Shown one piece after another: positions 15,690 through 49,474 of a stretch of 64,000 bases of DNA. The position numbers and the translations under genes are program-made. The notes beneath the pieces were generated by a model. It worked only from the letters and a program-made list of their open reading frames with translations, was not told where the DNA came from and made no database searches. The DNA is from a virus (lineage: Duplodnaviria; Caudoviricetes): IMG/VR virus record IMGVR_UViG_3300028888_000004, positions 1 through 64,000 of that record; one strand, 5' to 3'. Each line of letters begins with the position of its first letter. The first letter of the stretch is position 1.

Positions 15690-17928
15690 CTTGGATAATC
15701 AACCAAAGGAAGTTGAAGAGCAGTTCTTTGATTTCTTTAATAATGTTCCGCTTATAAGGTCTTTAGTTTCTCCTGATAGAAAGAGAGCTAAAGACCTTGA
15801 ACGTGATAACAGAGGCAGGATTATTGTTGATATAACTCATCCCCATATTCTTGAGGATATGGAGTACTTTCGTCCTGCTGCAAGACACTTTGAGCAATTT
15901 GGAACATACACAGACTTAAGACCTAATCCAAATCCAAATTCTGAATATGGAAGATGGATAAGGGAAGAGACAAGAAGATGCTGGGATGGATATGTAAGAG
16001 AGTCTGATGGAGAATGGATTCCAGGGGACCTATATTTCTTTTGGAACTATTGTCCCATGTCCATATCAAAAAAGGTTGAAGGAAAGAAGAAGTCACAAAG
16101 AGTCATAGGATTTCCAGCTATATGGGAAGGGCATTACTTGAAAGCACACTATCTTGAACAGGCAAGAGATAATGGTAAAATGGCTGTTGAGCTTGCTTCG
16201 AGACAGAAGGGCAAGAGCTTTTATGGGGCTGCAATGCTTGCTAAAAGATTCATATTGGGTGAATCTAAAGAGGTATGTAAAAGAGTAGTTTCCTATATTA
16301 CTGCTACAGACAAATCAAAGTTGGCTAATGGAGACCAGACTCTAGACAAGTTTCAGTATGATATTGACTTCATTGCTGAACACATGAGTCAGTGGCCAGT
16401 AAGAAGATTGTTCAACTCATTGTCTGACTTTAATTGGCAGATGGGCTATAAGGACTTGGATACTGGAACCAATAAGGGTACTCTTAATTCTGTAGTGGGT
16501 AAGTCTTCTCAGAAAGATACAGCTTCATTAATTGGTTCTAGAGGAGTTCTTTACTTATTTGAGGAAGCTGGTTACTTCTCTAACCTTCTAGGTCTTTGGA
16601 ACAACCTGCTTCCTTCAGTTATGGATAATGATGATGTCTATGGAATGCTTTATGGATATGGTACATCTGGAGATGATGAAAGTGACTTTTCGGCTCTTCA
16701 GGAAATAATGTACAATCCAGATGGATATAAGGCATACGGAGTAGACAATGTATATGATAAGGAAGGTCTTGGCAAAAAGAAATTCACATATTTCTTTCCA
16801 GGCTATCTTAACCTGGCTGGGTGTTATGATGAGAATGGAAACTCAGATGTAACTAAAGCTGTTCTTAATATACTTCTTGACAGGTATAATGTCAAGTACA
16901 ACTCTTCTGATCCAGCTACTATTGCCAAGAAGATTGCTCATATTCCTATTACTCCTCAAGAAGCTATTTTAAGAGTAAAGGGCTCTATATTTCCTACTGT
17001 AGATATCACAGAGAGGATAAATCAACTGGATAATGATTTAAAGTCTTATGATGATGTTTATATAGGTGACTTGGTGTTCAACAGTTCTGGTCAAGTTGAA
17101 TTTGTGCCTACTGATGACAGACCAATCAGAGACTTTCCTCTTAAAGATAATAAAGCAGCTGGTGCTATAGAGATCTACTCTATGCCAAAGAAAGATGCTA
17201 ATGGAAAAGTACCTAAAGGAAGATACATAGTTGGTCATGACCCTGTAGATGACGATCAAAGCAATACAATGTCATTAACATCTACATTTGTTCTTGACTT
17301 GTTTACTGATGAGATTGTGTGTGAATGGACAGGAAGACTGCAGTATGCTGATGATAACTTTGAAAGGCTTAGAAAGATATGTTTGTTTTACAATGCTACT
17401 TGCATGTATGAACAGAACAAGAAGGGAGCATTCGCATACTTCTCAATGATGAACTGTCTTTATTTACTGGCTGATACTCCTGAATATCTTAAAGACAAAC
17501 TGATTATTAAGGAAATAGGTTACGGAAATAGAGCAAAAGGAATTAATGCTACTCTTCCTGTCAACAAATATGCAGACAAGCTTACTCAGCAATGGTTGCT
17601 GAAGAGGTGCATTATGACAAAGGAAGTTGACGGTAAAGATACAGAAGTAGAGGTTCCTCAATTATACAAGCTTAAATGTAGGGCTTTTCTTAAAGAATGT
17701 CTTTTGTATGGTCCAGATATTAATGTTGACCGTGTAAGAGCATTTGGTATGTTGATGCTTTATAGAGAGGAATTCATGATTACCTATGGAGGAAATGTTG
17801 CTGCTGGACAAGAGGCACCATCAGACTACTTGGGAAATGATGACTTTTTTGTTACTAATTACGACGCTAAGAAAGAATTATACAACAATATTCCTGAGTA
17901 TGTTAAGAAAGCTATGATGATAAAATAG
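15640..17928 (+). CDS. terL: terminase large subunit
   Basis: Walker A SRQKGKS, Walker B LFEEAG, motif III GTSG, nuclease GHDPVD. Confidence 0.95.
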   Translation: MENLSVNSLQTPLESLDLDNQPKEVEEQFFDFFNNVPLIRSLVSPDRKRAKDLERDNRGRIIVDITHPHILEDMEYFRPAARHFEQFGTYTDLRPNPNPNSEYGRWIREETRRCWDGYVRESDGEWIPGDLYFFWNYCPMSISKKVEGKKKSQRVIGFPAIWEGHYLKAHYLEQARDNGKMAVELASRQKGKSFYGAAMLAKRFILGESKEVCKRVVSYITATDKSKLANGDQTLDKFQYDIDFIAEHMSQWPVRRLFNSLSDFNWQMGYKDLDTGTNKGTLNSVVGKSSQKDTASLIGSRGVLYLFEEAGYFSNLLGLWNNLLPSVMDNDDVYGMLYGYGTSGDDESDFSALQEIMYNPDGYKAYGVDNVYDKEGLGKKKFTYFFPGYLNLAGCYDENGNSDVTKAVLNILLDRYNVKYNSSDPATIAKKIAHIPITPQEAILRVKGSIFPTVDITERINQLDNDLKSYDDVYIGDLVFNSSGQVEFVPTDDRPIRDFPLKDNKAAGAIEIYSMPKKDANGKVPKGRYIVGHDPVDDDQSNTMSLTSTFVLDLFTDEIVCEWTGRLQYADDNFERLRKICLFYNATCMYEQNKKGAFAYFSMMNCLYLLADTPEYLKDKLIIKEIGYGNRAKGINATLPVNKYADKLTQQWLLKRCIMTKEVDGKDTEVEVPQLYKLKCRAFLKECLLYGPDINVDRVRAFGMLMLYREEFMITYGGNVAAGQEAPSDYLGNDDFFVTNYDAKKELYNNIPEYVKKAMMIK

Positions 17929-18019: not shown

Positions 18020-20416
18020 ATGAAGTACTTTGAGAGGTTCCCAAGACAGCAGCTTCGTATGAGTCAGAAGACAAAAAGCTGGCGTAAGAAGCATCTTGAT
18101 TGGGCAAATACAAAGACTTTCTTTAACAGTAGTCCTGTTAGAAAGTCAGTAGTCCATAAGAAGATTAACTATGATCTTCTTAATGGTAGGCTACACATGG
18201 AAGACATGATGGCCATTATAAATCCAGAAAGCATAACTTCTGGGTTCATTCCTGATAAGATACAGCACTATCCAATAATGAACTCAAAGCTTGATGTCCT
18301 TCGTGGTGAAGAATCCAGAAGACCTTTTGAGTGGAGAGCAGTTATTACCAACCCCAATGCTGTATCAAGAATAGAGGAAACTAAGAAACAAGAGACAATC
18401 AAAAGGCTTACCAGCCTTATTCAAGACCAAAATCTTTCTGATGAGCAGTTCTCTCAGGAAATGGAAAAGTTGAATATTTATCTTAAATTCAACTGGCAGG
18501 ATTCCAGAGAGCTGGCATCTAATGAAATTCTTAGGCATTATATAAAGGAGTATAATATGCCTTTGATGTTCAATCAGGGATTTCAAGATGCAGAAGCTGT
18601 CGGTGAAGAGATATATATGTGTGACATAGTTGGAGGTGAGCCTTATGTTGAAAGACTGAATCCTCTTAAACTCAGAGTCTACAAGTCAGGTTTCTCCAAC
18701 AAGATAGAAGATGCTGATGTCATAGTCTACGAAGATTACTGGTCTCCTGGAAAAGTTGTAGATGTATTCTATGACCAGCTTTCTCCAAAAGACATCAAAT
18801 TTCTTGATGAGCTTCCTGATTTGGTAGGGCAGAATTATTCAGACAAGATGGATAATATTGACGAAAGATATGGGTTTGTCAATATGAACATGATGTCTGA
18901 TGAAATTCATTCTGATGGATTCTATTCAGATTACAGTAACCTCTTTAACGAAACTCCTAATACATCCCTTCTTCCTTATGACCTTGCTGGAAATATCAGG
19001 GTACTTAGAATGTTCTGGAAGTCAAGAAGACTTATAAAGAAAATTAAGTACTATGATGAGAATGGTGAGGAGCAGTTCAAACTTAGAGATGAGAACTATG
19101 TTTGTGTAAAAGAAAAGGGTGAAGAGGAGGAATCTATGTGGGTTAACCAAGCTTGGGAAGGAACCCTCATAGGAGAGGACATATATATAGGTATGAGGCC
19201 CAGAGTGGTTCAATACTCTTCTCTTTCTAATCCTTCAAAGTGCCATTTTGGAATAATTGGTTCCATATATAATATAAATGAGTCCCGTCCATTCTCTCTT
19301 GTAGATAGAATGAAGCAGTACAATTATTTGTATGATGCTGTTCATGACAGGCTTAATAAGATGATGGCTAGGAACTGGGGTAAGATAATACAACTTGATC
19401 TTGCTAAAGTTCCTAAGGACTGGAATATTGAAAAATGGATGTACTTTGCCAAGACATCAGGTATCGCTGTTACTGATTCTTTTAAAGAAGGAAATTATGG
19501 CAAAGCTACCAATATCTTAGCTGGAAGCCTTAATAATGCTCAGTCTGGTGTTATAGATGCTGACTGGGGTAATAATATCCAACAGTACATTAATATACTT
19601 GAGTATATTAAGACTGAGATGGGTGAAATAACTGGTATTAACAAGCAAAGAGAGGGTCAGGTATCTAACAGGGAAACTGTTGGAGGTGTAGAAAGAGCCA
19701 CTTTGCAGTCTTCTCATATTACTGAATGGTTATTTGTTACTCATGATGATGTAAAGAAGAGAGTTCTTGAATGCTTCCTTGAAACAGCTAAGGTTGCTTT
19801 TGAAGGAAGAAATAAGAAATTTGAATACATAACATCTGATAACTCAAGAAAGGTTCTTGAAATTGATGGATCTTCATTCGCAGAATGTGATTATGGAATA
19901 GTGCTTGACAATGGTTCTGGAACTGCTGAAATGAATCAGAAGCTTGATACTCTTGCTCAAGCAGCTCTTCAGAATTCTGCACTGTCCTTTAGTACTATAA
20001 TGAAGATATATTCATCTGCTTCTTTGGCTGAGAAGCAAAGAATGATTGAGGAGGATGAAAGACAAATGCAAGAGAGGCAACAACAAGCCCAGCAGCAAGA
20101 ACTTCAGCAGCAGCAACAGATTGCAGAAATGCAAGAAGAGACTAAGAGACAGCAAATGGAAGCTGAAGAGAGAAGGCATCAGGAAGACAATGAAACCAAG
20201 ATACTTGTTGCAGAAATTAATTCCAGAGCAGAGGAGCAGCGATTTGCAATTAAGTATGATGATGAGAATGATGGAATAAATGAAGTGAGTGCTGACAAGA
20301 AAGCTGAGCTTGAGGAAAAGATAAGAGAGTTTGACAAGAAGCTTGAGCTTGATAGAGAGAAACTGAAACTTGAAAGAATGAAGATTAATAAGCAAAGTAG
20401 TAATAAATCTAAGTAA
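18020..20416 (+). CDS. portal protein
   Basis: follows TerL; FPRQQL, IQHYPIM, GINKQREG, ETVGGVER motifs; Q-rich C-terminal coiled coil. Confidence 0.93.
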   Translation: MKYFERFPRQQLRMSQKTKSWRKKHLDWANTKTFFNSSPVRKSVVHKKINYDLLNGRLHMEDMMAIINPESITSGFIPDKIQHYPIMNSKLDVLRGEESRRPFEWRAVITNPNAVSRIEETKKQETIKRLTSLIQDQNLSDEQFSQEMEKLNIYLKFNWQDSRELASNEILRHYIKEYNMPLMFNQGFQDAEAVGEEIYMCDIVGGEPYVERLNPLKLRVYKSGFSNKIEDADVIVYEDYWSPGKVVDVFYDQLSPKDIKFLDELPDLVGQNYSDKMDNIDERYGFVNMNMMSDEIHSDGFYSDYSNLFNETPNTSLLPYDLAGNIRVLRMFWKSRRLIKKIKYYDENGEEQFKLRDENYVCVKEKGEEEESMWVNQAWEGTLIGEDIYIGMRPRVVQYSSLSNPSKCHFGIIGSIYNINESRPFSLVDRMKQYNYLYDAVHDRLNKMMARNWGKIIQLDLAKVPKDWNIEKWMYFAKTSGIAVTDSFKEGNYGKATNILAGSLNNAQSGVIDADWGNNIQQYINILEYIKTEMGEITGINKQREGQVSNRETVGGVERATLQSSHITEWLFVTHDDVKKRVLECFLETAKVAFEGRNKKFEYITSDNSRKVLEIDGSSFAECDYGIVLDNGSGTAEMNQKLDTLAQAALQNSALSFSTIMKIYSSASLAEKQRMIEEDERQMQERQQQAQQQELQQQQQIAEMQEETKRQQMEAEERRHQEDNETKILVAEINSRAEEQRFAIKYDDENDGINEVSADKKAELEEKIREFDKKLELDREKLKLERMKINKQSSNKSK

Positions 20417-24830: not shown

Positions 24831-27800
24831 ATGGCAAAAGCTAATACAAATCCAATAACTAGTATTGAAACTCCTTGGGAGGGACGTGCTGGTTCTTGTG
24901 TAGAGAGATTTTTAAAAGACCAGCTTAAATCTAAAGTAGGAGCTTCGTATTTGGACAGTAATACTAATATTCTGTACTTCTTTGCTTCTACTGCTGATAG
25001 AGCTTCTTGGCTTGAAGATCCTACACAATCAGAGCTTGTTATATCATCTGCACTTATTAATGTAAACTCTAATTTGGTTTACAGGGTACTCATGACCAAT
25101 AACAATGGAACTACGGATATAAACACTGCAGCAAATGTTCCTGAATTGAATCTATCTATAGATTTTGATGTTCAGTTGTCAACACTTGGTAGTTCTGATT
25201 GGACATCTTCTGGCCAAGGTGTTATCATACGTTGTTACTCAGACCTTGGCTCTACTGGCACATTTACTGAAGTTCCAGTTGATAATAACTTCCTGATAGC
25301 TGGTCAGACATTTACTCTGAATGTCATGAAATACATGGCTCCTGGAACTAATAGATTCAAGGTAGAAATGTATGCGGAGGGCTCAAGTACTACATTTAAT
25401 TCAATTACATACTCTGTCAATGTGTCTGAGATGTATGTTGAATTGATGAACAATACTTGGTATCAGCCAGTTATTGAAGGAAATACATCATCATACAAAC
25501 TTGGTGGATTCAAGGTAGTTGGAGACCTGTCAAAGACTATTCACTTTGATGTTTATGCTGAAGGCTCTAATACTCCTGCAAAGACTTTCACAAAGCTTCT
25601 TGGCTCTGCAACTTATATTGATGCTGCATATAATTTTCTTCCTGCTGATGGTTTTAACCTGTCTGGACTTCAGTCTGGAGAATATAAGGTAGATGTATAC
25701 TTGACATCAGACACTCTTGAATCTACACATGTTACATACAATTTTATGTATGTTACTGCTTCTGATTCAAGTACTGCAAAACTCATTGTTATAAATAATG
25801 TTGCAGATTCTGCATATAACTACACTACTTCTACTCTTTGCCAGTATTCTGTATATAATGGAGGATTGTCTACTGCAGATGTTGATGTTACTGTAGCACT
25901 CACAACAGATGGTGTAAGAGAGGTTAAGGTTGACGATACTTATGAGGGTGTTACAACTGGAGTTCTTAATAACTTCACATACTCTGGAGAAATAAGCACA
26001 GAGTCTACAAACATTACTCTTGATGCTACAATAGGTATTGGAGAAGATGTGGAGTCTATTTCAATGCCATTTGACAACTCTTCTACATATCCTGCAGAAG
26101 CTGGATCAGTATTCTATATGAATGCTTCTACAAGGAATAATGCTCAGACAAACAAAGACAAAATTATAAATCTTGCAAATGACTCTGAGATTACTCCAGT
26201 ATGGAGTAATATTGACTTTGTTGACGGCATTGATGGGTGGACTACTGATGCAAATGGAAGAAAAGCTCTGTTAATTCCAGCAGGAAGTTCTGTAGAGATT
26301 CCTTATCAAGCTCTCTATCATGGTGAAGACACTACATTTGAAATTGCATTCAAGGCTGCTAATGTAGCTGATTATGATGAGAATATCATAACTGTTGCTA
26401 CTAATCCAACTCTTGCAAATTTTGCAGGAATAAGGATTAAGCCGACTAATGTAACTGTACACTCTTATTCAGATACTACTGCTACTAACGATACTGAAAG
26501 AGGTACTAACTTTAGGGATGAGGCTGTCCAGCATTTCCTTCTGTCTATAACTAAGAACTATGGTGGAAACAATGGTAAGAACCTTGTAACTGGATTCCTT
26601 AATGGTTGTAAGGCTTTCCAGTTTGATTATCTCACTGGAACAATCTGGGTTAATAATAGCAACATCAAGATTGGTTCTCAAAAGACTGATATCTATGTTT
26701 ATCTTATCAGATCTTATGAGAAGGCTCTTGGAGCAGCAGCTGCTGAACAGAACTATATTAATTCAATGCCTTCTCTTGAAGACAGAGCAATTACTGCAGC
26801 ACTTTTCCAGAGTGCAATCAATGCCAGCACAAGAGAGATATCCTATGATAAGATGATTGCCGCAAGCAGCACATACAACTTCTTTGTTGTAGATATGCTT
26901 AATGGGGCATCTATACCTTCAAGAGCTAATGGTTGGAGTAAAGACTCTAAGGGATATTCAAACTTTGAAATGCACTTTGGAGAGCACCCTGAGTGGGACT
27001 TCAAGCTTTATAATGTAGAAACTTCTGGTCAGGGTACTACATCTATGGACTACTATAGATGGAATCTCAGATTTAGAATAGATAAGAGCAACGATACCAA
27101 GAAGGTTGATGTTGCTTACTATGATGCTCCTACAACATCTGCTGGTAAGAAGAGATATAATGAGCAGCTACCTACAAGTTCAAAGACTGTATACTTTGAT
27201 GGTGGTGCAAATGGCTCTACTCAACAGCATCCTGCACTTAAGAGAATAACTGCCAAGATTAACATGGCATCCTCAATGCAGTCTCATAAGATGGGTGGAA
27301 CTGGGGCTTTCAATGCTCTGCATGATTATATGGGTCTTCAGAATGAGGCTCAGCAAATAGATCCAACAGTTTCAGTGGCTGTCTATGAGTATCCTGCATT
27401 TGGATTTGCCAAGAGAACATCAGCTACAGGAGTTGACACATATACATTTATAGGTCTGTTTACAATTGGTCCTGATAAGGGAGACAAGCCTACATTCGGA
27501 TATGACAAATCTCCTGAAACCCTTATTTCTCTTGAAGGTACTGATCACTCAAGGAAGATGGCTACATTCTCATATCCTTGGAATAGTGATGTACATTTCC
27601 TTGCTTCAAATGAATGTATTAACATTGTCAAGGGCAATAATGACTATGACAATGGACTTGAAGTAGGAAACTGTCATGACCTTTCAACAGATAAGGCTAC
27701 AGACCAAGCAAGTATTGAACTAGTTCTTGAAGAGCAATTCAAGCCTGCATATAATGTTGCTTTCCAGAATTCTACATTGATATTCCCTATAGCCCTTAAT

Positions 27801-30800
27801 GATGCTATTTATGGGGCTTCAACGGCAGCAGGAGTTCTTGCAAATATCAATGCAAACAAGACTGCGTTCCTTGCTACACAGTACAATAGTAGACTTACTT
27901 ATGCAGCAATGCAGTTCTGGATTGAAGGTGAGTATACTTTGTATTACTATGATATTGTGGCCAATGAGTTCAAGCCAGATATTAATCTTGTAACACAGAA
28001 TGGTGCTCCAACAGGTGCTACCCTTAATGAGCAAAATGAGTGGTTTAAGACTCAAAGAAGAAACAGGTTCAAGAGTGAAGCGCCTAATTATTGGGATATT
28101 CAAGACTCTATTTTCCATCTTTGCTTCTTGGTTATATTTGGAGCTACAGATAACTTTGCAAAGAACTCTTATCCTTATAAGATGGCACTTCTTGCAGATG
28201 ATGGTAGATGGAAGTGGAGACAAGATGACCTTGATACAATATTTGATATTGACAATACTGGCAGCCAGACAAAACCTTACTATATTGAGTATCTTGATAC
28301 TGCTAATGGATCAACATACTTTGCTGGTTCAGTATCTGCATTCTGGAACCTTCTTTATGAAGCTTTCTGGAATGACTATGGCACATCAATGGGTATAGAA
28401 TCCTTTGGTAAAGCCATGCTTAATGCAATGTCTGCACTTGCCAATGGTGCCAATGTCAAGGATGGATGTGTGGCGTTTATGAAGAAGTACTTCTGGGATA
28501 AAGCTCAAGAGTATTTCCCTGCTTCAACATACAACATTGATGGCCAGTTCAAGTATGAAACTGCTTGGCTTACAAATGGACAGAATGTTAATCCTTTGAC
28601 TCAGTCACTAGGAAACCACTATGAGGCTGAAATGCTTTGGGTTGAAAGAAGGGTTATATATGCGATGTCTCTGTTTAAGGCTGGTCCTTTTGGCCTATAT
28701 TCAGACACTTCCCTTGGAACTATAATGTTTGATAGGCCTTATAATCTTCCTGAAGTTAAGGTAAAGCCTATGATGTGGATATATCCTGCATTTATCGAAG
28801 GTGCTGGATCTCCTACAACTACATCTAGGACAGCTCCTGGTGAAGTTAAAACATTTATTGGACCATTTAGTACTGAAGGTCAAACCAGAACATATATTCA
28901 GGCCACTAATCAACTTTCTGAGCTTGGTAACTTAAAAGACCTTATACTTGCTCAAGGATATACTAATCCGATTCAAGTTAATGGTAAGAAACTTCAGAAA
29001 TTTGAAATAGGATATGATTCAACTGTAAACAGTTCAGATGCTGGATATGTTGCACCAAAGACAAATGTCCCTGGACTGTCATTCCCTGATAATCCTTGTT
29101 TGGAGCAGCTTTATGCAAAATATGCATCCTCACTTACAGGTTATCTTGACTTGACTAATCTTCCTAGACTTAAGGAGGCTATTCTTGGTGGCACATCATT
29201 CACCCAAATAGCATTTAAGGAAGGTAGTAAGATAGATACCATAGAGCTTCCTGACACTCTTGTTTACCTGTGGCTGTCTAATCTTCAGCATATTGAGACA
29301 ATTACTCTTCCTGCAGACCTTTCATCTATTGTTTCTCTTAAGCTTGAGAATTGCGATACCATTAATGCTCTTCAGATATTCAAGGATATCTATGATGCAA
29401 ATGGAGATCTTAAGTATATAAGACTTAAGTGGAATGAAGAAATAAGTACAGGTAAGAGTATTCTTGATGTTCTTCAGAATATAGCTAATAATTCTATTGA
29501 GGAAGTTGGGTCTGAGACTGGATACGGTGGAATAGATGCATCTGGAAATGCCACTGAGCATCCTTACATTGAAGGCACTCTTACTACTTCTGACACTGTT
29601 ACAGCTAATCAGGTTTATGATGTTGCCAAGCAGTTCCCTGAACTTAATATTCAGATACCTGATAGCCAGCAGTATATCGTCTTTGAAGATCCTGAAGTAG
29701 AGAGGATATGCCTTGCTAATTATGATACCAATAGTGATGGAGTACTACAGTTAGGTGAAGCAAAGGCGGTGACTTCACAGGTCTTTGGTAATACTGTTTT
29801 TAGAGGAAATACAACTATTGAAACATTTGATGAGCTTAAATATTTTACCGGCATGAATCACATGCCTGGTTCATCAAATTCTGCACAAGGCCCTTTTAGT
29901 AATTGTACTTCTTTAAAGACAATAACCTTACCGTCATCTATAACTAATGTTGGGCATAATTACGGTTGTAGTTTCTTTGGTTGCACAGCATTGGAAGAGG
30001 TAAAGAATTTTGGCAATGTTACAAGTATAGGATACGGCAGTTTCCAGAACTGCACTTCCTTAAAATCAATAGATTTGAGCGGTGTTACAATGTTTGACCG
30101 GAGCGGTGCTTTCTATAACTGCTCATCATTGGCAATAGAGCTTAACATGCCTCGATTAATGGGATGGGAAGGGAACAGCACTGATAGCACCTTTTACAAC
30201 TCTGGTATTACAAAGATTATTAATCTTGGTTCAACTGTAAGCCTTCCAAATACTACATTCAAAAACTGTAAGTCCCTTACTGAAGCTCATCTTCCAACTA
30301 CACTTACTACTATAGGCAATGACTGCTTTAGTGGCGACACTGCTCTTACAACTGTTACAGGATGTGAAAATGTTACTAGTATAGGTAATTATGCTTTCGC
30401 GTGCGGTTCAATTTCAAATTCATCACAAGAAAGACCAGGACATTTGGAATCTGCAGATTTTGACTTTAGTAAAATAACATCTATTGGTGAAAATGCATTT
30501 CAAGGGCAGAGACTAGATGGCATTATAAATGCTCCAAATCTGACTTTTTTAGGCAATGGTGCATTTCATGCTAATAATATTACTAAGGTTCAGAATCTTG
30601 GTTTAATAACTACGTTAAACACTTCTACTAGTACGGATAGTGGAATATTTAAATTTTGTACAAACCTTACAGAAGCACATCTTCCATTGACTGTAACAGA
30701 AATAGGCAATGGAGATTTCATGGCTTGTGCTCAGTTGGAAACCATTGATGGGTGGGATAACATAACATCAATTAAAACTTATGCTTTCAGTTATTGTCAC

Positions 30801-31334
30801 CAACTTGTAAATATTACAATTCCAGAAAAAGTAGAATCACTCGGCACGAACGCTTTTTCACATTGTAATAATCTTACAACTATTTCGTTACCTCAATCCT
30901 GTACTAGTATAGGACAGGAGTGTTTTGTAAACAGTCCTATTACCAATATAAATCTTGAATATATCGAACAGTTAGGCTCATATAATTTTAGAGGCAATAC
31001 TACTTTTAGCGGGCCAGCTATCATGTCTTCGGTAGTAAGTATTAGTACCGGGTGTTTTAGGAATTGCACCTGTGAAGAATATACAATAGGGCCAAATTGT
31101 ACATCTATAGGTAATTACTGCTTCATTGAACCTGTTGGTAGTAAAAAAACTGTTAAAATTTTAGCTACTACTCCTCCTACTCTGGGTGGTTCTAGTGTTT
31201 TTAATACAGGTAATACTACGGTAAAAATATATGTTCCTTATGGATATGCCAGTACATATCAAAGTGCTACTGGTTGGTCAGCATATGCATCAAAGATTCA
31301 AGAGCTTGATGAAAACGGTAATATTCCTGAATAA
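24831..31334 (+). CDS. giant fibre protein with CotH-kinase-like domain and BspA-type leucine-rich repeats
   Basis: DNFAKN/DDLDT motifs; C-terminal xxIGxxAFxxCxxL repeats, ATTPPTLG..IYVP..Y..W cap. Confidence 0.85.
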   Translation: MAKANTNPITSIETPWEGRAGSCVERFLKDQLKSKVGASYLDSNTNILYFFASTADRASWLEDPTQSELVISSALINVNSNLVYRVLMTNNNGTTDINTAANVPELNLSIDFDVQLSTLGSSDWTSSGQGVIIRCYSDLGSTGTFTEVPVDNNFLIAGQTFTLNVMKYMAPGTNRFKVEMYAEGSSTTFNSITYSVNVSEMYVELMNNTWYQPVIEGNTSSYKLGGFKVVGDLSKTIHFDVYAEGSNTPAKTFTKLLGSATYIDAAYNFLPADGFNLSGLQSGEYKVDVYLTSDTLESTHVTYNFMYVTASDSSTAKLIVINNVADSAYNYTTSTLCQYSVYNGGLSTADVDVTVALTTDGVREVKVDDTYEGVTTGVLNNFTYSGEISTESTNITLDATIGIGEDVESISMPFDNSSTYPAEAGSVFYMNASTRNNAQTNKDKIINLANDSEITPVWSNIDFVDGIDGWTTDANGRKALLIPAGSSVEIPYQALYHGEDTTFEIAFKAANVADYDENIITVATNPTLANFAGIRIKPTNVTVHSYSDTTATNDTERGTNFRDEAVQHFLLSITKNYGGNNGKNLVTGFLNGCKAFQFDYLTGTIWVNNSNIKIGSQKTDIYVYLIRSYEKALGAAAAEQNYINSMPSLEDRAITAALFQSAINASTREISYDKMIAASSTYNFFVVDMLNGASIPSRANGWSKDSKGYSNFEMHFGEHPEWDFKLYNVETSGQGTTSMDYYRWNLRFRIDKSNDTKKVDVAYYDAPTTSAGKKRYNEQLPTSSKTVYFDGGANGSTQQHPALKRITAKINMASSMQSHKMGGTGAFNALHDYMGLQNEAQQIDPTVSVAVYEYPAFGFAKRTSATGVDTYTFIGLFTIGPDKGDKPTFGYDKSPETLISLEGTDHSRKMATFSYPWNSDVHFLASNECINIVKGNNDYDNGLEVGNCHDLSTDKATDQASIELVLEEQFKPAYNVAFQNSTLIFPIALNDAIYGASTAAGVLANINANKTAFLATQYNSRLTYAAMQFWIEGEYTLYYYDIVANEFKPDINLVTQNGAPTGATLNEQNEWFKTQRRNRFKSEAPNYWDIQDSIFHLCFLVIFGATDNFAKNSYPYKMALLADDGRWKWRQDDLDTIFDIDNTGSQTKPYYIEYLDTANGSTYFAGSVSAFWNLLYEAFWNDYGTSMGIESFGKAMLNAMSALANGANVKDGCVAFMKKYFWDKAQEYFPASTYNIDGQFKYETAWLTNGQNVNPLTQSLGNHYEAEMLWVERRVIYAMSLFKAGPFGLYSDTSLGTIMFDRPYNLPEVKVKPMMWIYPAFIEGAGSPTTTSRTAPGEVKTFIGPFSTEGQTRTYIQATNQLSELGNLKDLILAQGYTNPIQVNGKKLQKFEIGYDSTVNSSDAGYVAPKTNVPGLSFPDNPCLEQLYAKYASSLTGYLDLTNLPRLKEAILGGTSFTQIAFKEGSKIDTIELPDTLVYLWLSNLQHIETITLPADLSSIVSLKLENCDTINALQIFKDIYDANGDLKYIRLKWNEEISTGKSILDVLQNIANNSIEEVGSETGYGGIDASGNATEHPYIEGTLTTSDTVTANQVYDVAKQFPELNIQIPDSQQYIVFEDPEVERICLANYDTNSDGVLQLGEAKAVTSQVFGNTVFRGNTTIETFDELKYFTGMNHMPGSSNSAQGPFSNCTSLKTITLPSSITNVGHNYGCSFFGCTALEEVKNFGNVTSIGYGSFQNCTSLKSIDLSGVTMFDRSGAFYNCSSLAIELNMPRLMGWEGNSTDSTFYNSGITKIINLGSTVSLPNTTFKNCKSLTEAHLPTTLTTIGNDCFSGDTALTTVTGCENVTSIGNYAFACGSISNSSQERPGHLESADFDFSKITSIGENAFQGQRLDGIINAPNLTFLGNGAFHANNITKVQNLGLITTLNTSTSTDSGIFKFCTNLTEAHLPLTVTEIGNGDFMACAQLETIDGWDNITSIKTYAFSYCHQLVNITIPEKVESLGTNAFSHCNNLTTISLPQSCTSIGQECFVNSPITNINLEYIEQLGSYNFRGNTTFSGPAIMSSVVSISTGCFRNCTCEEYTIGPNCTSIGNYCFIEPVGSKKTVKILATTPPTLGGSSVFNTGNTTVKIYVPYGYASTYQSATGWSAYASKIQELDENGNIPE

Positions 31335-36480: not shown

Positions 36481-37425
36481 ATGTTTACTAAAAAACAGAT
36501 AGAAGAAATAGCTGCTAAACTGGCTGATTTAGCTATTAAAGACAGCCAGTTTGGCAATATGACTATGCCTCTAAATGGCTCTGAGAATGTTCCTATTCTT
36601 CAAGACAATGAAAATAAGCTACTCTCATTTGCTGAATTAGTAAGTATAGTTAGAGAAAGTGATGAGTCACAATTAGTAAATCTCACTTTGAAAGTAAGCT
36701 GTTCTACTCCAGGAGCCACAATAAAAATTGATGGTGAAATAAAGTCATCCTGTACTGTCTCTTATGGTACAATGGTGGATGTAGAAGTGTCAGCAACTGA
36801 TTATGTGACTTGGTTTGGTACTATAACTGTAACTAGGTCACATTCTATTTCAATTACTCTGAGTAAAGCTGGCAGTGGTTCTGGAGGTGGAGGATCTGAT
36901 GGTCATTGTTGCTGTGGAGACCATTGTGTATGTTGGGATGATGCTGATGATGATCCTAGTACAACTACATATACAGTAACTGTTACTAATCCTAGTGGTG
37001 GTGCTACTCTTATGATTAATGACAGTGCTGCTGCCATGAATAAGGCACATGTATTTAATGCTGGAGACAGAGTAGTCATAGATATAACTAAAGAAGGATA
37101 TTATCCGTATAGCAAGACTATTGACCCTATAAACAGAAGTTATACAATCAATGCCGATGAAGTTCTTGAGCCTATTGACCAAGAAGAGGATAAGCACCTC
37201 AGCTTCACAATTCCTGAGATAAATATTCCAGCAGAAAGCGACTTGACAGCTTATTCAACTGTCGATGCAAGCTCATATATATCTTGGCAGATAAGGTCTA
37301 CATCCCTTCCTGATTATGAAGAAGATACTCCTGGGCAAGATACAGTGGAGCCTGCAATAAGTGTATCTCCTGAAACTATAAGTATGACTGTTGGTGAAAC
37401 AACTAATATTACTATAAAAGCATAA
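36481..37425 (+). CDS. head-fibre anchor-like protein with PEGA-like domains and C-terminal half BACON and half Big_2 domains
   Basis: KDSQF..LNGSENVPILQD N-terminus as in crAss head fibres; ends with incomplete Ig strands. Confidence 0.75.
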   Translation: MFTKKQIEEIAAKLADLAIKDSQFGNMTMPLNGSENVPILQDNENKLLSFAELVSIVRESDESQLVNLTLKVSCSTPGATIKIDGEIKSSCTVSYGTMVDVEVSATDYVTWFGTITVTRSHSISITLSKAGSGSGGGGSDGHCCCGDHCVCWDDADDDPSTTTYTVTVTNPSGGATLMINDSAAAMNKAHVFNAGDRVVIDITKEGYYPYSKTIDPINRSYTINADEVLEPIDQEEDKHLSFTIPEINIPAESDLTAYSTVDASSYISWQIRSTSLPDYEEDTPGQDTVEPAISVSPETISMTVGETTNITIKA

Positions 37426-37427
37426 TT

Positions 37428-38618
37428 ATGGCATATAAATTTAAATCAGAATCTCCTAGTGTAGCAACAGTAACATCCACAGGAAAAGTTACAGGTGTAG
37501 CTACAGGCTCTACTAATATAGTGGTAAGTAATGAAAATGATACTCCTATTGCCAGAATACCTGTAAGTATCTCTAGTCAAAGTAGCGATGTAAGGCCTAC
37601 TGGAATATCACTCAATAAAAGGTCTGTTACTGTGTACACATCTGGTGTTCTTGCCACATTGCAGGCTACAGTTACTCCATCCAATGCTGTAAATAAAACA
37701 GTTACTTGGGAGTCTTTGAATCCAGATATAGTCAGTGTGCATCCAAGATCAAATAACAAGTGTGAAATATGGCTTGAAGAAGGAGCACATTGGGGAGAGA
37801 CCACTGAAAGTAAGACTGCTACTGTAAGAGCTACAAATGCTGAAGGACACTTTGCAGATTGTACAGTAACTATTGGTGTGAAAGGTACAATTATAGATGA
37901 CATCACAGTACTGGATGCTTCAACAAATGCCAGTGGTGAAATTCTTGTTAGTGGAAGCGGATCTACATTTAGGCTTAAGTGTTCTTACCACAATGTAGGT
38001 GATTACTATGGTGGAATTTCTCTTGAGGGTCTTGGTGATAACTTGTCATCATATTATGGAGCCAGAGAGAATGCAGATGGATACACAATAATTCCTATAA
38101 CTGTAAAAGAAAGCTTCTACAAAGAAAGGACTATGACATTTAAGGTTAGAGGTTCTGGAGCAGGAGATTCTTTTACCACATTTACAGTAAGGCAATCTGG
38201 TGGAACAAGCATGTACAGAATCTCTCATCAGAATGCATACTTCGATGCTAATGGAGAACATCATTTTGAAGATGACAAGGGTAATAAATATGACTATGCA
38301 CAAACTCTTGAATATTGGTGCAATCCAGAAGTGAGTAAGTCTATTATAAATGACGCTGCAATTACTTACAGCAGTACTGATGAAGGTGGATGGGTAGGCT
38401 TTAATACAAGTAAGTGGTATTGCTATAAGAGGACTAATGGAAGTATATCCACAATGTCTAATTCAGAGTGGAATTCATTTATACTGAACCCTCCTGCAGA
38501 TACTATGGCAGATTGTTCAATTCCTGTTACAGTTTCAAAGAATACTACAGGCAAAACAAGAACTGCTACTATTGAATTTGATGGAGGAGTTAAGTTCTAT
38601 ATTACTCAAGGTGCATAA
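37428..38618 (+). CDS. Ig-like (Big_2/BACON) protein starting with a half Big_2 domain
   Basis: MAYKFKSESPSVATVTSTGKVTGV; full Big_2; C-terminal NTTGKTRTATI..ITQ. Confidence 0.85.
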   Translation: MAYKFKSESPSVATVTSTGKVTGVATGSTNIVVSNENDTPIARIPVSISSQSSDVRPTGISLNKRSVTVYTSGVLATLQATVTPSNAVNKTVTWESLNPDIVSVHPRSNNKCEIWLEEGAHWGETTESKTATVRATNAEGHFADCTVTIGVKGTIIDDITVLDASTNASGEILVSGSGSTFRLKCSYHNVGDYYGGISLEGLGDNLSSYYGARENADGYTIIPITVKESFYKERTMTFKVRGSGAGDSFTTFTVRQSGGTSMYRISHQNAYFDANGEHHFEDDKGNKYDYAQTLEYWCNPEVSKSIINDAAITYSSTDEGGWVGFNTSKWYCYKRTNGSISTMSNSEWNSFILNPPADTMADCSIPVTVSKNTTGKTRTATIEFDGGVKFYITQGA

Positions 38619-38635
38619 TAGTAAAATTAATTAAT

Positions 38636-40888
38636 ATGACTAATTTATCACCTAATGAAAGTCAATTAGTTGCTACAGGAACTGGAGAAGAGACATTGTC
38701 TCTTTCTGGTTGGGGCACTAATGAGTCTAGGCTCGCTAGGTCTTTTAAATACAGGCTTTACGATGCTGGTAACGTTCAGCAAGACACACTAATTGTTACT
38801 CAAGCAGGAGCAGAACTTGGTATAAGAGTCAATGGAAACGCTTCAAAGTCAGCAACATCAGGCTCTTCATCAGTTACTGTTACCTTTAATGGTTACAGCA
38901 ATGGAAGATATATGAGATTTCAGAATAATAACTCAAGCAGTCAACTTGTAGTTTCGTCTGCTAAAGAGTATTCTGCATCTCAAACTGGAGCTGACTTTTC
39001 AAGCAATTTTACAGAAGTATCGTCATTTGGAAGCTGGTATGAATTTTCTGTTACAGTAAGCATCCCTGCAAATGCAAGTGCTGGTACTTACAGTTTTTCT
39101 GTCTACACATCTGATGATACTTATACCACTCAGTCTGTGACTTACTCAGTAGTTGTCTCTGAATCTGGTGGAGGTGGTGGAGATGATTATGATCCTGTCA
39201 GCTCAATAAGAGTCACCCCTCAATCTGTTGTTCTATCTACAGATTCATCAGCCAGTAATCACACTCAACAACTGAGTGTAGTAATACTACCAGAGACTGC
39301 TGATCAAGGTGTTCAATATTTCAGTGATGATGCAAATGTAGCTACAGTATCTAGATATGGAGGTTTTGTTACAGGTGTGTCTGAGGGAACTTGCACAATA
39401 ACTGCAAGAGCTGATGGAGACTATAATAAATGGGACACATGCGAAGTATCAGTATTTACTCCTAGTTGGATTACTGTTGATGCAATTAATATTCCTGGAT
39501 CTGTAAGTGATCCTTCTGGATCTGGAGCTATTAGAGCGAATAATATTGATCCAGATACATTACAATATCATTACACAAGTGGTTCTGCTCCTGATTGGGT
39601 AAATAGTGTAACTATAGATACATCTAGTTATCCTTACTATCTTAATGTAAGTGTTGATGGAAATGGCACCATTGATAATCCAGGAAGTACAAGAAGCTTT
39701 AGCCTTTATGTTACTGCTGAAGATGAGTTTGGAGAAACTGTATCCAGTGGTTCTGTAGTAGTAACTCAGTCTGCTCCATCTACAGATGATAGGCCATGCA
39801 CAGGTATGAATATCAATTTGTATGATACTACTATAGAAACACCTAATAATTTAGGTGAGTACACATGTGAGTATGTGCCACCAGCAACTACTCAACATCG
39901 TCATACTTGGTATCTTACATACAGAGATGGAAGTGCAAATCCTAGCAGTGTAAGTGAACTTGGCTCTTCTGTACCTAGTAATATAGCAGAAATAGTTACG
40001 GATGACGGTGAACATTCAGAATATGGTCAAACATGTCTCATAAGAGTAAATACTGGTGCAACAACACGCCAGAATTTAAGAGTGTGGGTCATTAATTACT
40101 ATAACTTCAGTGCCAGAGACTACGTAGATGTTGATGCTATTTATGTAGAACCTAATGGAAACATCAGTGCAAATCCTAATCCAGTTACTGTAGGATGGAA
40201 TGATACCAGACAGGATAATACAAACGGTGCTCCTGTTATAACCCTTACAAATATGAGGGATACAGTAACAAATCTTACAGTAACACATACTGGAAGTATT
40301 ACAACTGCTAGTGTTGGAGGCTCAGGAAATACTGGATATGTCATTACTGAATTCCCTGTCAATCCTACTCCTTCAGTTCAGATTGAACTTGGTACAGTTA
40401 CCTTGTCTGGTTATGATGCTGGAGGCACAATGAGAAGTTACACTATATCATATAAACAAAGTGCTCAACCTACAGTACAAAAGAACGATATACAAGTATT
40501 AGCACTTAGTGCATCATTGAATAGTGGAGAATTTGATATAGTAGCAATAGGTAATTTGATAAATAATAAATTTGCTAGTACTACCTTTAACAACATAGTG
40601 TGTAGAGTTGTGGGGTACAACTCAGCAGACCCTACCACAATTATCTCTCAAACTTCAATGAATTTGGATTCAAGCTCTATCACTATGACTGCTTCTGAAA
40701 CAACTCATGAAATAACATTTACTGGAAGAATGTCAGCGACATCGCAGTCATCTTCAGATCACGTAGATGAATTCACAGTTGAAATGTCTGCTTATTCTGT
40801 AGCTGATGGAGAGACTGTTACCGACAGACGTGAGGGTCTTGATGGTACAGATGATCCAAATGATTACTATGATGACGGTACTAATTAA
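38636..40888 (+). CDS. multi-Ig (BACON/Big_2) fibre protein
   Basis: starts with a C-terminal BACON half; SDDANVATV Big_2; several VTQ-ending domains. Confidence 0.85.
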   Translation: MTNLSPNESQLVATGTGEETLSLSGWGTNESRLARSFKYRLYDAGNVQQDTLIVTQAGAELGIRVNGNASKSATSGSSSVTVTFNGYSNGRYMRFQNNNSSSQLVVSSAKEYSASQTGADFSSNFTEVSSFGSWYEFSVTVSIPANASAGTYSFSVYTSDDTYTTQSVTYSVVVSESGGGGGDDYDPVSSIRVTPQSVVLSTDSSASNHTQQLSVVILPETADQGVQYFSDDANVATVSRYGGFVTGVSEGTCTITARADGDYNKWDTCEVSVFTPSWITVDAINIPGSVSDPSGSGAIRANNIDPDTLQYHYTSGSAPDWVNSVTIDTSSYPYYLNVSVDGNGTIDNPGSTRSFSLYVTAEDEFGETVSSGSVVVTQSAPSTDDRPCTGMNINLYDTTIETPNNLGEYTCEYVPPATTQHRHTWYLTYRDGSANPSSVSELGSSVPSNIAEIVTDDGEHSEYGQTCLIRVNTGATTRQNLRVWVINYYNFSARDYVDVDAIYVEPNGNISANPNPVTVGWNDTRQDNTNGAPVITLTNMRDTVTNLTVTHTGSITTASVGGSGNTGYVITEFPVNPTPSVQIELGTVTLSGYDAGGTMRSYTISYKQSAQPTVQKNDIQVLALSASLNSGEFDIVAIGNLINNKFASTTFNNIVCRVVGYNSADPTTIISQTSMNLDSSSITMTASETTHEITFTGRMSATSQSSSDHVDEFTVEMSAYSVADGETVTDRREGLDGTDDPNDYYDDGTN

Positions 40889-40894
40889 TAATTA

Positions 40895-40932
40895 GACTCT
40901 TAGCCATAATTACTTATGGCTAAGAGTTTTAT
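40895..40932 (+). terminator. strong hairpin (terminator or mRNA stabiliser)
   Basis: GACTCTTAGCCATAA/TTATGGCTAAGAGTT, short T tail. Confidence 0.7.
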
Positions 40933-40954
40933 TGAATTTTAAATTACATTAAAT

Positions 40955-41680
40955 ATGCCTTCATATTTCACAATAAACCCTTCCTCTGAGACTGGCACTA
41001 AGAATATTACTATTACTGCTCAGCCTAATACAGGAAGAAACAGTAGGTCTGAGACTTTCAAGGCCTATAGCACAAATGTAGCTAATCTTGAATCCTCAAA
41101 TTATCTGATTGTTCATCAAGCAGAAAAGCCAGGATTTCTTGAAGAAGTTGTTCCCAAACCTTCTCCTACAGCTACCGATACTTCTGCAACTTATAATTTC
41201 AAGTCAAATCTTGCAAATATAAAGGTTGTAGCACCCTCTAATCCTACAGCTACTGTAACTGGTGCAACTATATGTGGTGTTCAACTTGATAGTACTAAGC
41301 TTGCTAATCTTATTAGCACATCTGGGTATAATGTTGAAGACTCAAATGGTTCCCTTGATCCCGGAAAATATGCAGAATATAATATAGCTATTACATTTGC
41401 ATTTGATCGGAATCAAGGTCAGACAGACAAAACCTACTCCTTCACAGTAAATGGTACAACATATCAATTTACACAAGGACACACAGAGGTAACAAGAACT
41501 CTTGCATTCTCAAGCTCTATAAGTTCTGATAGAACAGCAGAAGGAATTGAGGTTACACTCAATGCAAGTGGTGCCTATGCTGATGGTGCTGACAGGATTT
41601 TGCAAGTTACTACAACTCCTGCTACAGGTGTAAGCTGGACAATTGATGCAGTAAGCAATGATAATACTGCACTAAGATAG
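40955..41680 (+). CDS. circularly permuted BACON-domain protein
   Basis: starts SYFTINPSSETG..NTGRNSR..VHQ (C-half), ends IEVTLNASG..ILQVTT..SWTI (N-half). Confidence 0.8.
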   Translation: MPSYFTINPSSETGTKNITITAQPNTGRNSRSETFKAYSTNVANLESSNYLIVHQAEKPGFLEEVVPKPSPTATDTSATYNFKSNLANIKVVAPSNPTATVTGATICGVQLDSTKLANLISTSGYNVEDSNGSLDPGKYAEYNIAITFAFDRNQGQTDKTYSFTVNGTTYQFTQGHTEVTRTLAFSSSISSDRTAEGIEVTLNASGAYADGADRILQVTTTPATGVSWTIDAVSNDNTALR

Positions 41681-41687
41681 ATTAATC

Positions 41688-41728
41688 AAGTCAGGCATGG
41701 AGTTCTCTGTGCCTGACTTTATTTTATT
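41688..41728 (+). terminator. Rho-independent terminator
   Basis: AAGTCAGGCATGG/CTGTGCCTGACTT plus T-rich tail. Confidence 0.85.
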
Positions 41729-44078: not shown

Positions 44079-45605
44079 ATGGCAAAACTTGCGAAATTCC
44101 AAATGGTAGGCCCTACCTACTGGATGGGAACTACTAAGGAAAATCACCTTGGTAGCATTTTCCAGCTTAAGCCGCAGAAGGCTTCTGAGCTTATGGTTCA
44201 GCTCCTTGCTTGGAATAGGGGAAAGACTCTTGATACATTCCTTTCTCAGTTCCCTGTGAAGGAGTTTGAAACTGACGATGAATTTACATGGGATGTGATT
44301 GGCTCTTCAAGGAGGAATATTCCTCTTATTGAGGCACGTACTATTGATGGTACTCCTGTTCAAAAGGAAGATCCCAATGTTGGTGTGGCTACCACTCCTT
44401 TCTATCTTGTGTTCCCTGAGGCTTGGTTTGCTGATGGTGAGTACATTGTTGGTAATCTTAATGAGATTTATCAGTTCCGTATTCTTGGTGATGCAAGATA
44501 TGAGGGCACCAATGCTGTTTATAAGGTAGAGCTCGCTGGTGGAAATACTGATGGTGTTCCTGCTTCAAGACTTCAGGCTGGTGAGAAGTTCTCTGTTGAT
44601 GCAGCATATGTTGAGCACTCTTTCTCTCGTAAGGTTGGTGACATCAGATTTGCTTCTCCTGTTGCTATGAGAAATGAGTGGTCTACAGTTCGTATCCAGC
44701 ATAAGGTTGGTGGCTCCATGCTTAATAAGAAGGTTGCCTTTGGTATTCCTATGGTTAAGAAGGATGCTTCTGGTAGGATGGTCAAGTCCACAGATCCTAT
44801 GTGGATGCACTATGTTGATTGGGAGCTTGAGTGCCAATTCAATGACTACAAGAACAATGCTCTTGCCTATGGTAGAAGTAACCGTAACTCCAATGGCGAG
44901 TACATGAACTTTGGTAAATCTGGTGAGGCTATCAGAACTGGTGCTGGTCTATTTGAGCAGATGGAAGTTGCAAACACAAGGTATTACAACTCTACTCAGG
45001 GTGTTATGAAGCTTATCCTTGATGCACTCTATGAGCTTTCTGCTTCCAAGCTTGAGTATGGTGACAGGAATTTCATCATTAAGACTGGTGAAAGAGGTGC
45101 TCTCATCTTCAACAGAGAGGCTAAGGATATCACAAGTGGTTGGACTCCTATTTGGACAGGTGCTGATAAGAATCCTGCAGCTATTGAGAAGGTTCAGGCT
45201 TCCTTTGCTCCTGGAAACGCTGTGAGAGTTACTGACTATCAGGTTACTGAGTGGGTTGCTCCTAATGGTGTCAAGGTCAAGATTGATGTTGACCCTTACT
45301 ATGATGACCCTGTTCGTAATAAGATTATGCACCCAGAAGGTGGAGTTGCCTACTCTTACAGGTTTGATATATTCTACATTGGTACACAAGACCAGCCTAA
45401 TATTCAGAAGTGCCAGATAAAGGGACAGCCTGAGTATCGTGGTTATGAGTGGGGATTCCGTAATCCTTTCACTGGACAAATGGGCAATCCTTATATGTCT
45501 CATGACGAGGATTCTGCAACATTCCACAGAATGGCTACCCTTGGTATTGTTCTTCTTGATCCTACCAGAACAATGAGCATTATCCCTGCAATTCTGCAAG
45601 GTTAA
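44079..45605 (+). CDS. major capsid protein
   Basis: crAss MCP motifs ENHLG, RNIPL, GAGLFEQ, TGERG, DPYYDDP; strong codon bias; terminator after. Confidence 0.93.
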   Translation: MAKLAKFQMVGPTYWMGTTKENHLGSIFQLKPQKASELMVQLLAWNRGKTLDTFLSQFPVKEFETDDEFTWDVIGSSRRNIPLIEARTIDGTPVQKEDPNVGVATTPFYLVFPEAWFADGEYIVGNLNEIYQFRILGDARYEGTNAVYKVELAGGNTDGVPASRLQAGEKFSVDAAYVEHSFSRKVGDIRFASPVAMRNEWSTVRIQHKVGGSMLNKKVAFGIPMVKKDASGRMVKSTDPMWMHYVDWELECQFNDYKNNALAYGRSNRNSNGEYMNFGKSGEAIRTGAGLFEQMEVANTRYYNSTQGVMKLILDALYELSASKLEYGDRNFIIKTGERGALIFNREAKDITSGWTPIWTGADKNPAAIEKVQASFAPGNAVRVTDYQVTEWVAPNGVKVKIDVDPYYDDPVRNKIMHPEGGVAYSYRFDIFYIGTQDQPNIQKCQIKGQPEYRGYEWGFRNPFTGQMGNPYMSHDEDSATFHRMATLGIVLLDPTRTMSIIPAILQG

Positions 45606-48524: not shown

Positions 48525-49097
48525 ATGGTAAGATTTAATGATTTGAAAATCAGTTCTGACGGTTCCTGTTTCACAGTAAATGTGTCAGTAGATAGTGCTA
48601 GCTACTATGTAAAGAGATATATTACAGGTATTTATATTGATTCTGACTCTACTTTCAACAACAGCACTACTCCTTCAGACAAGGCAGTATTTATTTCTCT
48701 AGAGGAATCTCCTCAAAAGTCATTTAGAAAAACCTTTTCTGTAGGAGAACTTTCTGGAATTCTAACATCAAAGAACTTCAAGGACCACATGATGTATGTA
48801 TTTGTGGAACTTGATGGGCCCATAACTGGAGATGCACCATGTAATTCAGACAGTGATCTGTTTCTTGGTATAGCAGTTGACTGGAATGGAATATATCATA
48901 GAAGCTTAGACTTCATGAAGCAAGTCACAAAAGATTGCTGCAGTATTCCAAAAGAGTTTATTGACTATATATTGAGAACTAAAGCACTTGAACTTGCCCT
49001 GAAAACTGGGCATTACATTGTAGCTAAGAATGTTTGGGATAAGTTCTTTAGTAAGAGAAGGAAGACCATTTCTTCTATTTGTGGTTGCAATAAATAG
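48525..49097 (+). CDS. tail hub protein A-like
   Basis: synteny; FNDLKIS, C-terminal CGC. Confidence 0.6.
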   Translation: MVRFNDLKISSDGSCFTVNVSVDSASYYVKRYITGIYIDSDSTFNNSTTPSDKAVFISLEESPQKSFRKTFSVGELSGILTSKNFKDHMMYVFVELDGPITGDAPCNSDSDLFLGIAVDWNGIYHRSLDFMKQVTKDCCSIPKEFIDYILRTKALELALKTGHYIVAKNVWDKFFSKRRKTISSICGCNK

Positions 49098-49105
49098 ACA
49101 AAGCC

Positions 49106-49474
49106 ATGTATGATGATACAACAACAATAGAAGCTTATAAGGCACTTCAAGATTACTTCAATCACTTGTCTAAGACAGGTTATATGAGGTATGACAATGT
49201 GTATAAGCTCATTGTATTCTTATATGTGGATGAGATTCTTCATACTTGCGATAACTTTGATGCTACTGAAGAAGACTATAATATCATTATGAACATGATG
49301 CAATGCCTTTATGGTACCTGTCTTCTTCCTTATCCTGAATTCAGAAAGAATCTTCCTTATGTTAACAGTGATGAAGACCTTGATAAACTCAGAAGTGTAG
49401 AGTGGGATATTCTCAGGCAAACAGAAGAAGGTGAACTTAGAGTAATAGAATCAAATACGAAATTAGCTAGATGA
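49106..49474 (+). CDS. tail hub protein B-like
   Basis: YF..LS..GY, CLYG.CL.PYP, LR.TE..LR. Confidence 0.6.
   Translation: MYDDTTTIEAYKALQDYFNHLSKTGYMRYDNVYKLIVFLYVDEILHTCDNFDATEEDYNIIMNMMQCLYGTCLLPYPEFRKNLPYVNSDEDLDKLRSVEWDILRQTEEGELRVIESNTKLAR

Follow-up and report, generated by a model that had tools for sequence, protein, structure and literature searches.

Background

Chaperone-usher pili such as Fim and Pap are assembled by donor-strand complementation and exchange, and strand exchange also builds the type V pili (FimA/Mfa1) of Bacteroidia. Circular permutation and three-dimensional domain swapping classically have one of three outcomes: the monomer closes, a swapped dimer forms or an open chain results. 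SpyCatcher, obtained from CnaB2, is an engineered split immunoglobulin-like (Ig-like) domain that exploits fragment complementation. In phages, work by Fraser and colleagues from 2006 reportedly found Ig-like domains appended to structural proteins by programmed frameshift. Here we analyse a four-gene module in the first 64,000 nucleotides (the window) of IMG/VR record IMGVR_UViG_3300028888_000004, a complete crAss-like gut phage genome of 102,496 bp with direct terminal repeats. The open reading frames (ORFs) starting at 36481 and 37428 (the two parts of a putative anchor, P0001 and P0002), 38636 (a putative tip, P0003) and 40955 (a putative shaft or connector, P0004) are interrupted by gene boundaries inside Ig-like domains, and we think it probable, on balance, that the encoded tail-fibre proteins are joined by trans-complementation of half-domains. 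The first and second halves of such a domain are called the N-half and the C-half below.

Among related phages, crAssphage gp64 contains tandem BACON arrays (de Jonge et al. 2019, PMC6949934), and modular BACON/Ig adhesins of gut phages have been described (2026, PMC13370021). In PhicrAss001, the tail fibre base gp22 stands on a THA2-THB docking hub, in which the N-terminus of the gp22 trimer, residues 1-26 and beyond, is seated, and carries further fibre proteins (Bayfield et al. 2023, PMC10172136; PDB 7QOJ). How gp22 holds these partners is left open in that study, which describes no split domain. Split or half domains are likewise not described in the two other papers (PMC6949934, PMC13370021). 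A full-text literature search gave no phage case of split-domain complementation.

The proposed principle resembles that of the pili in that the incomplete Ig-like fold of one subunit would be completed by the next, giving a head-to-tail, non-covalent chain. Unlike in pili, each partner here would contribute roughly one half of a domain, with four strands and 40-55 residues, instead of one strand, assembly would be cytoplasmic and on the virion, and the chain would probably be a defined hetero-oligomer instead of a homopolymer. No chaperone, usher or maturation protease was noticed in the module, for which no dedicated search was made, and the resemblance is one of mechanism only. With the crAss BACON arrays the locus shares the domain type, the phage group and the position of fibre or adhesin genes by the tail genes; P0012 and P0014 are such tandem arrays and match the shaft C-half. 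However, the arrays are covalently contiguous, whereas in this module the domain is interrupted by gene boundaries, always at one loop. Compared with SpyCatcher, the split appears to be a natural and conserved one that involves three or four different genes, and it implies no covalent bond.

Half-domains at the ends of the shaft protein

The preliminary description of this stretch had claimed that the 40955 protein starts with the C-half of a BACON domain and ends with an N-half, that the 36481 protein carries an unpaired N-half, and that the 38636 protein has a C-half and a shaft-like middle domain with no terminal N-half. These observations are confirmed, and they are broadened by a split Big_2 domain (see below). 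As a BACON domain we counted one chain covering the full model (PF13004, or PF19190, 'Viral BACON') above the gathering score. Single chains do not reach this, and the full-length match was found at the junction of the two-unit protein P0043 only.

In P0004, residues 6-55 correspond to positions 13-60 of the 61 in Pfam BACON (PF13004), with 18.8 bits, which is under the cut-off of 25. On a full-length BACON hidden Markov model (HMM) built here from tandem arrays, residues 1-55 take positions 44-95 of 97, and the N-terminus of the whole shaft family falls on BACON positions 38-90 of 91 with a probability of 97% (hhalign). The long shaft P0047 likewise starts with positions 42-94 of the 94 in PF19190 (Pfam). 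Given this partial coverage of the models, the proteins hold BACON halves and not a whole domain. Read from stop to stop, the frame of P0004 has 4 extra codons upstream and no more, and therefore no first half is hidden 5' of its start.

The C-terminal segment of P0004 is assigned as an N-half mainly because it aligns, column for column (alignment A4), with the first half of the complete BACON domain at the P0043 junction. P0039-P0044, of 408 aa, are two shaft units in tandem, and the junction in P0043 (residues 198-256) is a complete Pfam BACON (positions 1-60 of 61) with 37.7 bits against the cut-off of 25. In this natural two-unit fusion, the last half of a shaft and the first half of a shaft make one complete BACON domain. 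Both termini of the 408-aa proteins are still half-domains.

About 20 representatives, 211-259 aa long, were obtained in an exhaustive HMMER search and align with P0004 over their whole length at 28-40% identity; the family comprises at least 20 clusters at 50% identity. Every one of these relatives begins 3-10 residues ahead of the C-half, at about position 42 of the 94 in the viral BACON model, and stops 2-15 residues past the conserved Trp of the N-half, just beyond the first-half strand SWTI, and at this level of divergence their halves retain the BACON core motifs (NTGR..R, V.Q and SW.I). P0004 shares the end-to-end alignment, the start at a C-half and the end at an N-half. Structural neighbours of the shaft in the ESM-Atlas are 200-218 aa long and mostly viral, one cluster counting 1339 members. 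In Foldseek and VIA-align comparisons, the middle domain alone was identified, as a generic Ig-like sandwich (Z 6-8), a permuted domain being beyond both methods. A search for related loci using P0004 as the query found none, and alignment A2 offered no conserved stretch of use. Deposited phage genomes gave zero matches to the region by blastn and to P0001 and P0004 by tblastn.

What lies between the two halves varies. P0004 has a single domain there, P0017 (302 aa) a single domain and a 65-aa linker rich in Pro, Asp and Thr, P0047 (423 aa) about 330 residues, of which about 220 are extra, and P0043 (L003:8001-9227) a middle-BACON-middle arrangement. Such varied material fits halves that serve as couplings at either end of a rod.

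The tip, the anchor and the balance of halves

The tip protein P0003 matches the shaft family profile (positions 12-170) over its residues 13-169 with an independent E-value of 4e-12, and a scan with half-domain HMMs found no BACON N-half anywhere in it. A short tip of 307 aa in the L003 lineage presents positions 41-93 of the 94 in BACON_2 (PF19190) at its residues 3-57. Tip-like genes with an orphan C-half adjoin the shaft gene in L002, L007, L003, L013, L016 and L017. In L014 and L012, an ORF of 62-69 aa lies between the tip-like and shaft genes. This small ORF (L014:5803-5991, L012:1468-1677) is hydrophobic, and the window has only a hairpin at that place.

The orphan N-half of the anchor (HLSF...ISWQI) is internal to P0001 and is kept in seven anchor lineages. 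Its match to generic BACON models is weak (16 columns by hhalign, E 7e-4), and the anchor of L014 is matched by the shaft N-half HMM at 3e-4. When the anchor N-half was artificially joined to the shaft C-half, the score on the BACON HMM rose by 12 bits over that of the C-half alone, an anecdotal gain.

Residues 1-71 of P0001 align, N-terminus to N-terminus, with residues 2-72 of PhicrAss001 gp22 at 29.6% identity (BLASTP against a set of 11 proteins, E 1e-4). A profile of the anchor N-termini run against the same 11 head and tail candidates picks gp22 (E 4.8e-8, 23 bits), and in a PDB-wide search gp22 (7qoj_J) was the sole phage match, with E 0.21. Besides P0001, no other ORF of the genome has a gp22-like N-terminus. 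The genome also encodes the docking hub itself: THA and THB are recognised as PF25724 (2.5e-44) and PF25711 (1.2e-23), respectively. These sequence similarities moderately support the anchor as a candidate gp22-type tail-fibre base. Past about 70 residues, the two proteins are unrelated: gp22 has a polygalacturonase-like spike, whereas the anchor has PEGA, Big_2 and BACON domains. A head-fibre identity, raised by a weak Pfam match to Head_fiber_dimeric (E 0.025), was dropped in favour of the gp22-like tail-fibre base. A PDB profile search with the anchor alignment returned spurious antibody-linker matches only.

Two further features of the anchor are recorded here. P0001 has a Cys-rich insert, GHCCCGDHCVCW (residues 141-152, 36901-36936), after a Gly-rich linker; it is missing in the L002, L007 and L014 anchors and may be a metal or disulfide site. 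The C-terminal BACON-like domain of P0002 (residues ~300-396, 38330-38618) shows no first Trp strand and is enlarged by some 45 inserted residues.

At the sensitivity of the half-domain HMMs, the 102-kb genome holds two orphan N-halves (anchor and shaft) and two orphan C-halves (shaft and tip). Anchor, tip and shaft genes stand together in the window and in L002, L007, L014, L016, L017 and L013. The gene order is anchor-tip-shaft in the window and anchor-shaft-tip in L013 and L017.

Proposed assembly and its alternatives

Break points are conserved in many diverged relatives, so the separate proteins most likely join by completing half-folds. The balance of halves suggests a chain in which the anchor (N-half) is followed by the shaft (C-half...N-half) and the tip (C-half). 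We therefore propose the following scheme. The four ORFs would form one tail-fibre arm of separately translated chains with gene boundaries inside Ig-like domains, BACON twice and Big_2 once. The anchor would dock in the THA/THB hub via its gp22-like N-terminus and expose an internal half-BACON consisting of the first four strands. The shaft N-terminus would supply the missing second half, while the shaft C-terminus would present a new first half, to be completed by the N-terminal second half of the tip. The two parts of the anchor may be held likewise, across the split Big_2. Each half is unlikely to fold alone and would be completed by a half on another chain; gene boundaries might lie inside Ig-like domains because only such breaks hold the pieces together.

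The strongest competing explanation is that the shaft is a closed, circularly permuted two-domain monomer of 241 aa whose own termini complete a BACON domain. Only the anchor N-half and the tip C-half would then pair in trans, or the shaft would have a separate role. A protein with the order C-half...N-half is formally a circular permutant, as in classical domain swapping, and antiparallel side-by-side packing of its two Ig-like domains would be geometrically possible with the existing linkers. An AlphaFold2 monomer of the shaft on the 28-row alignment A4 reached a mean predicted local distance difference test (pLDDT) of 86.9 and a predicted template modelling score (pTM) of 0.70 (pLDDT 42 on the shallow alignment A1), scores that suggest a compact and possibly self-closed whole. 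However, AlphaFold2 monomers satisfy family contacts in cis by construction, and the last strand (SWTID) has low confidence in this model (pLDDT ~53). The break also falls in precisely the loop at which the orphan halves nearby are cut. A weaker argument is that closure would be costly in family members whose halves are set apart by a 65-aa Pro-rich linker, by some 220 additional residues or by a whole second unit. We consider the closed shaft unlikely.

Another possibility, envisaged in the preliminary description, is that shaft subunits polymerise head to tail and so form a variable-length filament, which the anchor nucleates and the tip caps. The shaft does have both complementary ends, and the two-unit fusion is a viable BACON made of a shaft N-half and a shaft C-half. 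Against this, longer shafts exist as encoded fusions and insertions (408 aa, 423 aa), which suggests that length is set genetically, and the orphan halves are balanced 2:2. Furthermore, the C-halves of shaft and tip are strongly diverged (86 vs 15 bits on the shaft C-half HMM), as are the N-halves of anchor and shaft, and such divergence fits pair-specific joints; nor would anything limit cytoplasmic polymerisation or cyclisation. We find such a polymer quite improbable and infer the order anchor-shaft-tip with one shaft unit per arm. Thus, the division into anchor, shaft and tip has stood, with the gp22-like N-terminus, the adjacency of tip and shaft genes and the two-unit fusion fitting these roles, while variable-length polymerisation gives way to a defined chain and the free pilus-like filament is read instead as a crAss tail-fibre arm seated on the hub of the tail.

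It is also conceivable that no complementation between chains takes place, the half-BACONs being remnants packed in cis on the middle or PEGA domain, with any association occurring through other surfaces. The C-half is confidently modelled beside the middle domain in the AlphaFold2 monomer, and the N-halves are poorly recognised by generic profiles. Yet remnants would hardly keep canonical BACON core motifs at such low identity, or a break point conserved to within a few residues. In P0043 these halves are joined into a contiguous BACON of canonical form, and orphan halves of either polarity come from neighbouring genes. This explanation seems to us very improbable.

Several points weigh against the trans-complementation that we favour. 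Generic BACON profiles recognise the N-halves weakly, and the assignment of these halves depends mainly on their conservation and on the two-unit relative. The confident AlphaFold2 monomer of the shaft suggests a compact, possibly self-closed fold. Similarity of the anchor to gp22 is modest (23 bits by profile, E 0.21 against the whole PDB), and from the L003 lineage no anchor was recovered. The BACON variant at the C-terminus of P0002 was taken as complete on visual inspection, and the 2:2 balance would be lost should it prove to be an orphan C-half. Finally, the pairing of halves between chains is something we infer from the sequences.

The split Big_2 domain inside the anchor

P0001 ends and P0002 begins within one Big_2 domain: residues 4-33 of P0002 correspond to positions 37-66 of the 79 in PF02368, and no full-length Big_2 in one chain is found at the 36481/37428 boundary. 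In L014, residues 3-43 of the second anchor part take positions 38-78 of 79. The junction of the window (TAA, 2 nt, ATG, a -1 frame change) recurs unchanged in three further assemblies, which come from other samples. The same Big_2 loop is cut in L014 by an in-frame TAA with a 12-nt spacer (frame 0), and in L017 with a 19-nt spacer and a +1 frame. The ATT-ATG start context is conserved across the split anchors. In L002, L007, L016 and L018 the anchor is fused, with one ORF of 676-697 aa and an intact Big_2. Three of the fused anchors (L007:2227-4320, L016:7755-9848 and L018:4912-6830) have a Met ('DMG') exactly at the second-ORF start of the split lineages, which could mark an internal start or be left over from a re-fusion.

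No slippery X_XXY_YYZ heptamer, as expected for a programmed -1 frameshift, is present at the junction (ACT ATA AAA GCA TAA). Recoding is unlikely, and separate translation is favoured, because of the three frame relations, the conserved ATT-ATG and the missing heptamer. The locus is like the reported frameshift-appended Ig domains in having a Big_2 where the frame changes, close to the 3' end of a structural gene, and unlike them in that the break lies inside the domain, the frame relation differs among the three lineages while the ATG is conserved, and a slippery heptamer is missing. Ratios of nonsynonymous to synonymous substitution rates (dN/dS) between the window and L010 are 0.16, 0.07, 0.23 and 0.20 for the four ORFs in turn; therefore, all four are maintained by purifying selection. 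Although the 36481/37428 junction is a -1 change beside an A4 run and the anchor is fused in relatives, it is hardly credible that the breaks are sequencing errors, pseudogenisation, or programmed frameshift or readthrough giving fusions, since four independent assemblies share the junction, three lineages have three spacer and frame geometries (2, 12 and 19 nt; -1, 0 and +1), no heptamer is found, dN/dS is low, and the BACON halves are not collinear (anchor-tip-shaft), with terminator hairpins after the tip and shaft genes. We also considered stop-codon reassignment and rejected it: translation under code 11 gives normal ORFs, and at the breaks a TAA stop precedes a new ATG.

Genomic surroundings of the module

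The features of the module and of its surroundings are collected in Table 1. An auxiliary capsid protein was also recognised in the genome (PHROGs and Pfam). Genes downstream of the four ORFs match gp27, gp30 and gp31 of PhicrAss001 at 39-53% identity; therefore, the four ORFs occupy the place of the PhicrAss001 tail-fibre genes gp22-gp26. Upstream of the module (24831-31334), there is a 2167-aa protein with BspA-type leucine-rich repeats (PF13306, 2.3e-69), probably another fibre or adhesin. In L002, a 253-aa ORF with GIY-YIG-like motifs (L002:3132-3893), probably a homing endonuclease, lies between the portal and anchor genes.

Table 1. Features of the four-gene module and neighbouring structural genes (nucleotide positions in the window; residues of the named protein)
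Feature	Position	Strand	Remarks
Large terminase, crAss-type	15640-17928		PHROGs and Pfam
Portal	18020-20416		PHROGs and Pfam
Putative anchor, part 1 (P0001, 314 aa)	36481..37425	+	gp22-like N-terminus, PEGA-type domains, orphan BACON N-half, Big_2 N-half
P0001 gp22-like N-terminus, putative tail-hub docking	residues 1-71 (36481-36693)	+	PEGA-type domains next
P0001 orphan BACON N-half	residues 238-275 (37192-37305)	+	acidic linker next
P0001 Big_2 N-half	residues 292-314 (37354-37422)	+	
Junction TAA-TT-ATG within Big_2	37423..37430	+	-1 frame change, no canonical slippery heptamer
Putative anchor, part 2 (P0002, 396 aa)	37428..38618	+	Big_2 C-half, complete Big_2, BACON-like domains, C-terminal BACON variant
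P0002 Big_2 C-half	residues 1-48 (37428-37571)	+	
Putative tip (P0003, 750 aa)	38636..40888	+	BACON C-half, shaft-like middle, Big_2, further Ig/BACON-like domains
P0003 orphan BACON C-half	residues 1-57 (38636-38806)	+	
P0003 middle domain	to about residue 170	+	paralogous to shaft middle
P0003 Big_2	residues 188-259	+	more Ig/BACON-like domains after
Terminator-like hairpin 3' of tip gene	40894..40929	+	
Putative shaft or connector (P0004, 241 aa)	40955..41680	+	BACON C-half, Ig-like middle, BACON N-half
P0004 BACON C-half	residues 1-55 (40955-41119)	+	
P0004 Ig-like middle domain	residues 56-179 (41120-41491)	+	
P0004 BACON N-half	residues 180-241 (41492-41677)	+	
Terminator-like hairpin 3' of shaft gene	41688..41719	+	
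Major capsid protein	44079-45605		PHROGs and Pfam
Tail hub proteins THA (48525-49097) and THB (49106-49474)	48525..49474	+	Pfam

Implications

A broader generalisation is that half-BACON and half-Big_2 ends are a plug-and-socket code across many gut phages, in which modules rebuild the Ig fold between chains, tips and extension units are swapped by recombination at gene boundaries, and the shaft adds copies to give variable length. In this full form we regard the idea as rather doubtful.

Even the atlas of PhicrAss001 leaves open how crAss-like phages attach their many fibre proteins to each other. A conserved joint made of one Ig-like domain split over two polypeptides would be a simple principle of attachment that can be predicted from sequence. 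If our scenario is true, it would explain why fibre genes of these phages start and end in the middle of domains, and the composition and order of a fibre would become readable from genomes. It would likewise account for the easy exchange of receptor- or glycan-binding tips, and it would offer protein engineers a natural, non-covalent split Ig connector.

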